Source: a virus
Taxonomy: Duplodnaviria; Heunggongvirae; Uroviricota; Caudoviricetes
Reading direction: 5' to 3' (one strand)
Length of the DNA: 18,908 nt
IMG/VR virus record: IMGVR_UViG_2713897055_000006
Each line of letters begins with the position of its first letter. Positions within the stretch are counted from its first letter, which is position 1. Below, piece by piece: positions 15,001-18,000 of the stretch. Made by a program: the position numbers.

Positions 15001-18000
15001 GCGGATGTGCTCATGCCTGATTTTCATGAATCAACTCCGATGCATTTGGTGTGTTAGCCTTGAATCCAACAGGTAAGCCGTCGGTTGGATTCGGGTAAAT
15101 ATCAGGCCGGAGTTCATGAGGTGTAACCTCGAAATTCGTTACTTCAGCAACACGTAATGCTTTTTCAGGGCTGAATCTTTCATAGCCCCCCAGCACTCGA
15201 CTTACATGCACCTGAGATAAACCCGTTAGCTTCCCAAACTGTAGCTGGGTGATATGTTTCTCTTTTAAATAGTCTCTTAAGTTCATAGCCAACCTTCTAC
15301 GTTATGCCTCGAGCAAATATTAGTCCCGCTAATTTTAAAGATCAATAGCCAGACTATCTTTGATAATATTGGTAAAACAAATAAACTCTATGTATGAAAA
15401 AAAACACGCGAAGTGATTGCAACTCCAGAAGCGAGCAAGAATTTAAAAGCCGCATGGAATGCAAGAAAAAAAGAGCTGAAGCTGACTCAAGAGCTGGCGG
15501 CTGAGTTGTTGGGATTCGAATCTCAAGGCACCGTTAGCCAGTATCTGAACGGCAAGATACCGGTAAATACCGACGCTGCGCTAAAATTTGCGGCTCTGTT
15601 AAAGGTAAAACCAGAGGACATTCGAGAAGACCTTAAAGACTTAATGAATTATGTAAGATCATCAGATACTTATGATGATAACTTTTCAGGCAAAGGATGG
15701 AGGCTGGTCAATGAAGAACAGGCAGAGTTACTTAACCTCTTCGAGATTCTACCTGCGTCAGAAAAAGCCAAACTCCTTAACCAGCTACGTGGACTAAACA
15801 AGCTCTACGAGGAAGCCTTCGAGAACATGCTGGCACTAAAGAAACGTAACCAGTAGCCACCGCTCACTACCCCATCCACAACAAAAAAACCGACGTCTTA
15901 GTCGGTTTTTTTGTGCCATAACTTCTGCAAATCAGCTGTATAACTAATATTTTTCCCTTGAAAAAACATTTACATAGTTACCAAATCAAAAATATCATAC
16001 GCCATACTGTTGACTTAAAATATCCGCGTTACTAATATTTCTATCAAGAACAGCACGGCGCTGTAGGTTTTAGTTCCGCCACCCGGCGTTAAGGGGAAAT
16101 GAGGTCAGCATGGATACTATCGAGCTTGGCAACAACGAATCTCTGGTGTACGGCGTGTTTCCCAACCAGGACGGCACATTCACCGCGATGACGTATACCA
16201 AAAGCAAAACGTTTAAAACCGAAAATGGTGCCCGTCGCTGGCTGGAAAGAAACTCAGGTGAGTGATATGGATTTCGACACAATCATGGAAAAGGATTACG
16301 AAGAATACTTCGATGGTCTTGCCGAAGGCGAAGAAGCTCTCAGCTTCAGTGAATTTAAACAGGCGCTTTCCAGTTCGGGAAAATCTAACGGCTGATAAGC
16401 GAAACAGCACCGCGAGGAATCAGTATGCAGAAACGAGAACCCGTCATCATCGCGCCAGACTATACCGATGATGAACTTTATGAGTGGATGCGCCAGAAAA
16501 TTAATGCAGTGCAGGATCTGAAATGGGCCAATGAAGCCAGGACTAAGCAGGCTGAAAATCTGTCCGCTCTGGAGCAGGATATCACCAGGCTGGAAAAAGC
16601 AGCGGCATTAAGCATTGCCAGAATGGTTACATACCCACGTTAATAGCTAACCAACGAGGCTAATAATGGAATTTAAAGATTTACCAATGCCATTCCAGGA
16701 AATGGCAGCGAATGTGGTTCGCTCTCAACTGGCGACTCTTGACCTGAGTACTGTAGAAAAGGAAACCATCGATACTATATCCGGTAACGTGCGTCGTGCC
16801 TTTATAGGTCTGTATGAAGAGAAGCGCCTATTCGGCGGACAGAATTCGCCTGAAAACAAGAATCAAGCAAATGATGAGAAGCTGAAACACATTATCGCCT
16901 TACTTTTGGAAGACGCAAAACGTCTACAGCAACTGGAACCAAATGCAGGCACAGAGGCCCGCATTTGGATTGCCATGAAATCACTCAAATGTGAAAGCAG
17001 TGATTATTTCAAAACAACAATTAAAACTACTCAACTTTCGGGAGAGCTACTGAAGAAATTGCCATAAGAGCATGGTCTTTCTCTTGTTCTGCAAGATGAG
17101 CATTAATACCTGGTATGGTTTTTTCAAATTTATCTATCTGTTGAATAACAACTTCGCGGTATACGTTTGTTTTTGTACCACCAAGCGCAGCCGTTAATGC
17201 AGAAAGCATATTTAGTATCATATCAGTGCGATATGAAAGAATCCTGATAGCTTCATCTTGTTTTTCAATAATAGATTGCAGGGCCTCAATTTGCTTTTTA
17301 TCCATTTCACCCTCCTGAGGGTTGGTAATTAAGGAGTTCTCCACGGGTCAGGTGGAGTGCGTGCGCCGGACACGGGTGAGCATCCGGCACTGACAGTTTA
17401 CTGAAAGGATATGTCCCTGAAAAGTCAGGGCATAACGCGAAAGCGCACGGCGAAATTGGTCTCTCTGTACGGTGTCGTTAAATTTAGTTCGACCGTGCGC
17501 TTCCGGTTGTGGCAATCCGCGAAATGGCGCGGCGGTAAGTATGGCGGGGTTATTCCTTCCCCGCTGAGGACACCGGGTTGTCAGGTTGACCATACGCTTA
17601 AGTGACAACCCCGCTGCAACGCCCTCTGTTATCAATTTTCTGGTGACGTTTGGCGGTATCAGTTTTACTCCGTGACTGCTCTGCCGCCCTTTTTAAAGTG
17701 AATTTTGTGATGTGGTGAATGCGGCTGAGCGCACGCGGAACAGTTAAAACCAAAAACAGTGTTATGGGTGGATTCTCTGTATCCGGCGTTAATTGTTAAC
17801 TGGTTAACGTCACCTGGAGGCACCAGGCACTGCATCACAAAATTCATTGTTGAGGACGCGATAATGAAAACGTTATTACCAAACGTTAATACGTCTGAAG
17901 GTTGTTTTGAAATTGGTGTCACTATCAGTAACCCAGTATTTACTGAAGATGCCATTAACAAGAGAAAACAAGAACGGGAGCTATTAAATAAAATATGCAT

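Follow-up and report, generated by a model that had tools for sequence, protein, structure and literature searches.

The DNA analysed here (the window) is a stretch of 18,908 nucleotides from IMG/VR virus record IMGVR_UViG_2713897055_000006, a member of the Caudoviricetes, and it forms part of a Qin/PPompW-type lambdoid prophage whose closest complete genomes are those of E. coli 042 and NCCP15648; in the latter the prophage adjoins an ompW remnant. Between ydfC and the DicF precursor the window carries a 656-bp block with two convergent genes, here called ORF133 (plus strand) and ORF92 (minus strand) after the lengths of their open reading frames (ORFs). This block is one allele of a recurrent hypervariable slot, tentatively an accessory slot of the moron type, within the DicA-repressed early-left operon of lambdoid prophages of the Qin/PPompW type. 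An earlier note on this sequence had described the block as an AT-rich insertion with two convergent genes of unknown function in a dicB-type operon, one operon away from the repressor gene. The two genes and their setting are borne out, and in place of a one-off insertion there is a slot that is filled, in different prophages, by at least seven different genes on the minus strand. The anatomy of the block and of its right-hand flank is as follows.

16664-17319, no strand assigned: the 656-bp cassette, running from the start codon of the plus gene to the Shine-Dalgarno sequence of the minus gene; absent from K-12 Qin.
16666-17067, plus strand: ORF133, 133 aa from an ATG; RefSeq hypothetical protein WP_000394529/30; phrog_1363.
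16666-16851, plus strand: module A (aa 1-62 of ORF133), the conserved N-terminal domain and the left boundary of the slot.
16870-17067, plus strand: module B (aa 69-133 of ORF133), elsewhere a stand-alone protein of 63-71 aa.
16939-16968, minus strand: 12-bp inverted repeat, ~60 nt past the ORF92 stop codon, inside the most conserved module B codons.
17027-17067, no strand assigned: 41-nt 3' overlap of the ORF133 and ORF92 coding regions, from the ORF list.
17027-17305, minus strand: ORF92, 92 aa from an ATG; RefSeq hypothetical protein WP_000358771; phrog_18692.
17311-17316, minus strand: Shine-Dalgarno sequence AGGAGG of ORF92, 5 nt before the ATG; kept before all cassette types.
17320-17430, minus strand: conserved leader ahead of the minus gene, coinciding with the first part of the DicF-precursor spacer; two hairpins (17339-17357, 17365-17388).
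17638-17689, plus strand: DicF small RNA (sRNA), Rfam RF00039, 76.7 bits.

DicF and DicB are textbook prophage-encoded regulators, and the ~340-nt spacer before DicF is treated as an untranslated leader. In a pairwise alignment with K-12 Qin the block appears as a single clean indel of 656 bp (16664-17319), with ydfC on its left, the DicF precursor on its right and closely matching flanks, and the K-12 annotation places no gene between ydfC and dicF, as the earlier note had stated. The backbone is otherwise that of the K-12 dicBF operon (ydfABC-dicF-dicB-ydfD), with the same ydfA, ydfB, ydfC, DicF and dicB and a ydfC-dicF spacer that matches outside the block; in K-12, however, the slot is empty and the leader is kept with no gene behind it. 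Since the minus-gene leader is present in K-12 too, gain here versus loss in K-12 cannot be polarised. The surroundings of the block were identified by Pfam as YdfA (DUF1391), DicB and a DicA-like helix-turn-helix (HTH) repressor, with dicB at 17864-18052. Among 5426 complete E. coli genomes the full 656-bp block is present in 124 and the K-12-type empty junction in 2697. The pair holds the same position in about 2% of E. coli genomes, and there too both proteins belong to families of unknown function. The GC content is 0.35-0.38 across 16850-17300, as compared with 0.46 upstream and 0.55 downstream, so that the block combines the discrete presence or absence and the deviating base composition by which morons are recognised. 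ORF92 has a GC content of 0.37 and ORF133 of 0.43, placing the low GC mainly in the ORF92 half; the description of the block as AT-rich is only partly right.

The slot was sampled by scanning IMG/VR with a 25-nt motif taken from the conserved right flank, chosen so as not to favour any allele, and the 120 contigs recovered were sorted as follows, 4 of them being too short for classification.

Slot empty, K-12-like: 78 of the 120 contigs.
Type C, minus-strand ORF of 77 aa: 11 contigs.
Type A, ORF92: 10 contigs, one of them frameshifted.
Type B, 91 aa, an ORF92 homologue: 7 contigs.
Type D, 73 aa: 5 contigs.
Type E, 74 aa, related to type D: 2 contigs.
Type F, 96 aa: 2 contigs.
Type G, 69 aa: 1 contig.

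The occupied sites hold at least seven kinds of minus-strand ORF of 69-96 aa, all starting from the same Shine-Dalgarno sequence, and at every one of them the minus ORF is convergent with the plus gene and overlaps its 3' end by 11-122 nt. Common to the alleles are, on the left, the opening ~55 codons of the plus gene and, on the right, the Shine-Dalgarno sequence and ATG of the minus gene together with the sequence beyond; the interior alone is swapped, that is, the C-terminal part of the plus gene and the whole of the minus-strand gene. The anatomy, the slot structure, the conserved overlap and the consistent antisense placement are observed features. In strain 09-02E, for example, the slot holds a 106-aa plus gene and a 91-aa minus gene with a 23-nt overlap, and the product of the minus gene is an ORF92 homologue (28% identity), and in PPompW_699 a 135-aa plus gene and a 77-aa minus gene also overlap by 23 nt, the minus protein being unrelated to ORF92. 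The type B minus gene is present in 198 and the type C minus gene in 650 of the 5426 complete E. coli genomes, O157:H7 strains included among the latter; with the ORF92 gene (127 genomes), and each gene being counted separately, about one fifth of these genomes hold one of the three minus genes sampled. The alternative slot proteins have no Pfam match and match PHROGs only in families of unknown function. A distant homology of types D and E to ORF92 was considered and is unsupported (hhalign probability 0.2).

Both genes were listed by the earlier note with their lengths, their 41-nt 3' overlap and a strong ribosome-binding site on the minus gene, and the ORF list, the RefSeq annotation and the AGGAGG sequence at 5-nt spacing agree with that description. 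A longer minus-strand form from a GTG (17027-17344, 105 aa) can be read as well; RefSeq annotates the 92-aa ATG form. The ratio of nonsynonymous to synonymous substitution rates (dN/dS), computed between the window and a Salmonella prophage, comes to 0.25 in ORF92 and 0.19 in the module B part of ORF133; for module A, comparison among E. coli alleles gives values of 0.08-0.36. An alignment of ORF92 with its relatives, at identities down to ~25%, retains invariant residues. These substitution patterns indicate that ORF133 and ORF92 are genuine protein-coding genes under purifying selection.

ORF133 is an early-operon gene composed of two modules, with a low-confidence linker between them. It is a full-length match to phrog_1363 (E = 3.4e-45 over residues 1-131), placed by PHROGs in the class of unknown function, and a word-indexed search of 5.8 billion proteins returned 263 clusters. 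The AlphaFold2 (AF2) model is all helical, with a predicted local distance difference test (pLDDT) score of 62 overall and ~80 over the first 55 residues, module A as a whole also scoring ~80. Searches of ORF133 against Pfam, NCBIfam, PADLOC and the PDB sequences gave no significant match (none below E = 0.5 in the PDB), neither Pfam nor NCBIfam assigned it to a toxin family, and a fold search with the low-confidence model returned nothing below E = 2. Module A is shared, at 87% identity across the first ~60 aa, with plus genes bearing other C-termini; the first 162 nt of ORF133 are found in ~900 E. coli genomes, and the module also matches phrog_6937, phrog_2151 and phrog_9419, with more distant matches in Stx phages. 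Module B is homologous to a 71-aa Salmonella protein over its full length, occurs alone or otherwise fused in IMG/VR loci and in phages of Shigella, Cronobacter, Aeromonas and Pectobacterium, and also makes up the N-terminus of further small proteins of phages. Judging from these alignments, ORF133 is a fusion of two modules seen separately elsewhere.

Two further arrangements of the modules were observed. At a type E locus in IMG/VR (e.g., contig L094) the YdfC frame continues in frame into module B (MQKREPV...RPMRLTMNETELKH...), which points to further module shuffling by gene fusion at the slot. In prophages lacking ydfB and ydfC (L003 2489-2860, L005 2489-2875) the module A gene follows directly after ydfA, has an in-frame ATG upstream (MRLTM-EFKDLP...) and has no minus-strand partner. 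The identity of module B with lambda CIII, suggested by a cIII-like position relative to kil and by a by-eye likeness to the CIII amphipathic helix, is rejected: PF02061 matches lambda CIII (1.5e-30) but no module B protein, and BLASTP against CIII gave no alignment.

ORF92 is likewise a full-length match to a PHROGs family of unknown function (phrog_18692, E = 5.9e-63 over residues 1-92 of 92). Its family is a very small one of enterobacterial prophages: the word-indexed search returned 22 clusters, from E. coli and Salmonella, an HMMER profile search of 1.84 billion representatives returned only 18 matches to the family, and the matches in an IMG/VR protein scan were nearly all near-identical copies. 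Of the 127 complete E. coli genomes with the ORF92 gene, 124 have the whole block. The protein is predicted to form three helices (AF2, pLDDT 75) and is mildly acidic (isoelectric point 5.7, grand average of hydropathy -0.10), with no membrane-spanning segment (highest 19-residue Kyte-Doolittle mean 0.93). No Pfam family was matched at E <= 0.1 and no DNA-binding domain was detected; NCBIfam, PADLOC and the PDB sequence search gave no significant match (none below E = 0.5 in the PDB). Fold searches returned generic helical bundles, the best PDB matches being ribosomal protein chains at E >= 0.14, and nothing below E = 0.5 in BFVD. Being small, predicted helical and devoid of recognised domains, both ORF92 and ORF133 most likely act by binding other proteins.

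In the Salmonella counterpart an ORF92 homologue with 72% identity converges on a separate 71-aa module B gene with the same 41-nt overlap. This pair lies in a repressor-proximal early operon and is followed by sequence that resembles, by eye, the 3' part of DicF and then by YdaE, RecE and RecT; Rfam calls no DicF at this locus. Relatives of ORF92 at 33-44% identity adjoin cI/cro/cII, cox/C/int or an integrase, and they are antisense to the early operon wherever such an operon is recognisable. In a P2-like cox/C/integrase locus the relative overlaps a 244-aa HTH gene by 41 nt, in two lambda-like contigs it lies directly beside cI/cro/cII and is overlapped by a short opposite-strand ORF, and a further relative adjoins an integrase. 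By the gene content of these loci, the ORF92 gene always adjoins an immunity region. The short ORF of the lambda-like contigs (L017 739-906 and L018 488-664, both on the minus strand) is unannotated and convergent with the ORF92 relative, and its product (EASILDYLTGEIETTQISGELL) resembles the C-terminal tail of ORF133 (SDYFKTTIKTTQLSGELL), residues beyond the overlap included.

Partners within the slot are mixed. In the IMG/VR loci module B is paired with ORF92 and also with minus genes of types E and G, these and ORF92 being mutually unrelated; the C-terminal module paired with type B is also paired with type D; and several prophages have a plus gene without any minus gene. A strict covariation of the plus-gene C-terminal module with the minus gene, which would be the signature of a toxin and its immunity protein, is rejected by these combinations, and what stays constant is thus where the minus gene sits and the sequence it shares upstream rather than a fixed partner.

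That shared upstream sequence comprises ~100 nt before the minus-gene ATG; every allele has it, and so do the empty slot of K-12, the Salmonella locus and the P2-like locus. The stems of this leader show compensatory changes (CTCCAC/GTGGAG to CCCAAC/GTTGGG, and GCCGGA/TCCGGC to GCCGGG/CCCGGC); the E. coli leaders are too alike for covariation statistics. Rfam 15 places no family on the leader and nothing on 17320-17637, calling downstream only DicF and a sub-threshold STnc100 match. On folding of 17306-17640 both strands beat their shuffles, with z = -2.6 for the plus strand and -4.8 for the minus strand, and the leader may serve the mRNA of the minus gene, the plus-strand DicF precursor, or both. 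Putative extended -10-like motifs were picked out by eye at comparable positions in the P2-like and lambda-like loci (TGtTATTAT and TGgTATGAT); in the lambda-like locus the motif follows a leader-like hairpin, and Rfam finds no DicF in the sequence searched there. Within the GC-rich spacer of the DicF precursor, 17411-17605 on the plus strand corresponds to a RefSeq hypothetical protein of 64 aa (WP_014639149.1, strain 042); this is probably a spurious call, the region being conserved as nucleotide sequence and structure.

At the other end of the minus gene, the inverted repeat at 16939-16968 is the sole inverted repeat reported in 16600-17450 and is a candidate 3' stem-loop of the ORF92 transcript. 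The stem is more stable in the minus-strand RNA than in the plus-strand RNA, both here (-19.4 vs -16.0 kcal/mol) and in Salmonella (-16.3 vs -10.6 kcal/mol), and the Salmonella stem substitution is still paired (G.U) on the minus strand only. The stem has no U-run and is better seen as a candidate for stabilising or processing the RNA than as a canonical terminator.

The transcript that gives rise to the DicF precursor must run antisense through all of ORF92 and the leader before it reaches DicF and dicB, so that the antisense relation far exceeds the 41-nt coding overlap. The earlier note had taken the convergent overlap to imply interference between the two transcripts; the layout allows such interference, over a span much larger than the one proposed. 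The closest arrangement in a well-known phage is that of sieB, which in the lambda record lies between N and ral, in the interval from the repressor-proximal genes to kil, on the strand opposite the pL operon (plus vs minus). Rac sieB is oriented as lambda sieB, and SieB is a membrane protein. ORF92 is similarly antisense within an early-left operon near the repressor, between ydfC and DicF/dicB. It differs in being a predicted soluble helical protein of 92 aa with no sequence similarity to SieB, which is ~184 aa by its coordinates, and with neither a Pfam match at E <= 0.1 nor a hydrophobic segment ORF92 does not fall within the SieB family. One study (PMC10461980) lists P22 sieB among prophage-expressed functions, and the sas antisense RNA of that phage acts as a switch on its translation (PMC7067206, PMC12197685). 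The convergent units overlapping at their 3' ends also resemble lambda oop and cII, where oop RNA forms a duplex with the convergent cII message that leads to RNase III-dependent decay (PMC12197685); oop, however, is a 77-nt non-coding RNA, whereas the antisense partner in the block is the gene of a conserved protein and is crossed entirely. Antisense placement is typical of morons (PMC7067206), and variable hotspots are described in P2 and P4 prophages (PMC9122126). With lambdoid morons and the P2/P4 hotspots the slot shares a discrete block with conserved flanks, a lower GC content, alternative unrelated cargo and an orientation antisense to lytic genes. It departs from them in that its cargo consists of single proteins of 69-96 aa rather than recognisable multi-gene defence systems, that one structured leader and Shine-Dalgarno sequence precede each allele, and that every allele extends over the 3' end of a sense gene of mosaic make-up.

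By analogy with these systems we favour, tentatively and with slightly less than even confidence, a reading in which the moron-like slot takes a sieB-like position, the lysogen would express ORF92, derepression would silence it, its transcription would oppose leakage into dicF and dicB, and ORF133 would be an early lytic gene. The promoter, the timing of expression, the antisense switch and the biological role are what we infer here. In the repressed prophage ORF92 would be transcribed independently from its leader, as is lambda sieB. On derepression the ydfABC-ORF133-DicF-dicB transcript would run antisense over the entire ORF92 mRNA, and ORF92 would be shut off by polymerase collision together with RNA duplex formation or RNase III cleavage, as for P22 sas/sieB and lambda oop/cII. 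Transcription of ORF92 would in turn damp leaky read-through to the toxic DicF and DicB. Recombination between the conserved ends would swap the C-terminal part of the plus gene and the whole minus gene. ORF92 would most likely act in the lysogen, in phage exclusion or host modulation, and ORF133 early in lytic growth.

Several results weigh against this reading. A sigma-70 promoter scan of the minus strand of the leader found none at the 9/12 threshold, and the candidate chosen by eye is a weak match of 8/12 (-35 TTTTCA at 17423-17418, a 17-nt gap, and -10 TAAACT at 17400-17395). The leader could equally structure the plus-strand DicF precursor, as both strands beat their shuffles. Neither protein shows homology to exclusion, defence or regulatory proteins in Pfam, NCBIfam, PADLOC, PDB or fold searches. 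Finally, a tblastn search with ORF92 of 50,697 deposited phage genomes gave no match, and ORF92 may therefore be confined to largely defective prophages.

The constant association with immunity regions bears on the alternative that the ORF92-family proteins are regulators of their own lysis-lysogeny or early-operon circuit, for example as modulators of the repressor or of DicF or DicB expression, rather than accessory cargo. The family sits beside the immunity region in four temperate backbones (lambdoid dicB-type, lambda-like cI/cro/cII, P2/186-like cox/C/int, and integrase-adjacent), and the leader travels with the gene. The slot, however, is empty in about half of E. coli genomes and holds unrelated proteins in other prophages, which suggests a dispensable and replaceable function and fits cargo better than core regulation; Pfam, moreover, detects no DNA-binding domain, and we regard a regulatory role as unlikely.

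The two genes might instead form a cognate two-protein module, of the toxin-antitoxin or effector-immunity kind, in which module B and ORF92 would bind one another and the overlap would couple their dosage. Such a pairing would account for the fact that in both E. coli and Salmonella, at ~70% protein identity, module B lies next to an ORF92 homologue and overlaps it by the same 41 nt, and for the presence of the whole block in 124 of the 127 ORF92-bearing genomes; purifying selection on both genes and a weak sub-threshold match of ORF92 to a RelB-like antitoxin (NF048017, 15.9 bits vs a cutoff of 50) point the same way. The partner combinations argue otherwise, since module B also occurs with the unrelated minus genes of types E and G, the type B homologue of ORF92 has a different C-terminal partner module that is itself also found with type D, distant ORF92 relatives overlap the gene of the 244-aa HTH protein or lack a neighbouring module B, and plus genes exist without a minus gene. 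Co-conservation within the overlap is in part forced by the shared nucleotides, and no toxin-like domain or membrane segment was found by Pfam, PADLOC or hydropathy. For a type II toxin-antitoxin system, then, the RelB-like profile stays below its cutoff and the partners do not co-occur faithfully; a type I system pairs a small hydrophobic toxin with a non-coding antisense RNA, and both products here are hydrophilic proteins under purifying selection. A cognate pair is accordingly quite unlikely.

If the promoter scan, which found nothing at threshold, is taken at face value, the minus ORF could be a silent passenger with no expression of its own, ORF92 being a relic and the leader a structural or processing element of the plus-strand DicF precursor. 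The retention of the leader in K-12, where there is no minus gene, and the folding of the plus strand, also better than shuffles, fit this explanation. They are set against a dN/dS of 0.25 for ORF92, a family maintained to 26-44% identity with its invariant residues, the consensus arrangement of AGGAGG, 5 nt and ATG before seven different ORFs, and a leader-like hairpin with an extended -10-like motif in the lambda-like locus where Rfam found no DicF in the sequence searched; a silent passenger is in our view very improbable. Membership in a known anti-phage defence or superinfection-exclusion system, which would match the earlier note's suggestion of defence cargo and has position in its favour (repressor-adjacent, antisense like lambda sieB, in a variable slot), is highly doubtful, as PADLOC-DB 2.0 gave only noise (E >= 0.014) for seven cassette proteins and their partners, no SieB-like membrane protein is encoded, and neither Pfam nor the fold searches gave homology to defence proteins.

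The same operon appears to contain a second variable position. An 855-bp gene for a Rha-family regulator lies between DicF and dicB in E. coli 042 and NCCP15648 (L001 4479-5333, L009 18710-19564), and in NCCP15648 a dicB fragment lies there as well; the Rha-family gene is missing from the window (17690-17863) and from K-12, which marks a second variable slot. The sub-threshold STnc100 match lies in the same interval, at 17701-17841 on the plus strand (34 bits vs a gathering score of 47), and a truncated STnc100 match above threshold is found at the start of the window (1-114, minus strand). The immunity region consists of a YdaS/Cro-like HTH gene and a DicA-like HTH repressor gene, at 15011-15292 on the minus strand and 15413-15856 on the plus strand, and in matching genomes a YdaT-family gene lies beyond it, in keeping with a Rac/Qin-type regulatory architecture. 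Elsewhere in the prophage a sok antitoxin RNA is found at 8416-8591 on the minus strand (Rfam, 117 bits), and NCCP15648 annotates hokD at the corresponding place, indicating a hok/sok type I toxin-antitoxin locus. Three clustered tRNA genes lie at 1524-1772 on the minus strand, near antiterminator and DNA methyltransferase genes according to the matching NCCP15648 annotation.

In kind, the slot belongs with lambdoid mosaicism, morons and sieB-like antisense accessory genes, all of which are already known, and both proteins are catalogued as hypothetical. A literature search found no paper that discusses genes between ydfC and dicF; a paper on the prophage sRNA svsR does not include DicF, dicB or ydfC. 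What appears to be undescribed is a slot in which one conserved, structured leader and Shine-Dalgarno sequence serve small ORFs of at least seven kinds that can replace one another, the regular overlap of each such ORF with the 3' end of the mosaic sense gene, the status of the K-12 DicF spacer as the empty form of the slot platform, and the narrow ORF92 family with its association with phage immunity regions.

The sieB-like reading favoured above can be extended to the slot as a whole. In that form the ydfC-DicF spacer of dicBF-type prophages would be a hotspot for antisense cassettes, with a structured promoter-leader expressing interchangeable small lysogen effectors (at least seven kinds, acting in exclusion, defence or host modulation) that would be switched off by the DicF/dicB precursor on derepression, in the manner of sas and sieB. 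We put this forward as a doubtful proposal; if it were true, the K-12 DicF leader would be an empty expression platform whose minus-strand promoter might still act on ydfC and DicF expression.

For the biology of these prophages, the spacer before DicF is seen to be the conserved edge of a variable slot whose small genes face the operon. If the minus genes are expressed in the lysogen, they would constitute a compact set, simple to clone, of 69-96 aa proteins that are candidates for exclusion or host modulation, and their transcription would also matter for the restraint of leaky expression from the toxic dicBF genes. If they are not expressed, the slot would represent ordinary lambdoid mosaicism and two more hypothetical genes.

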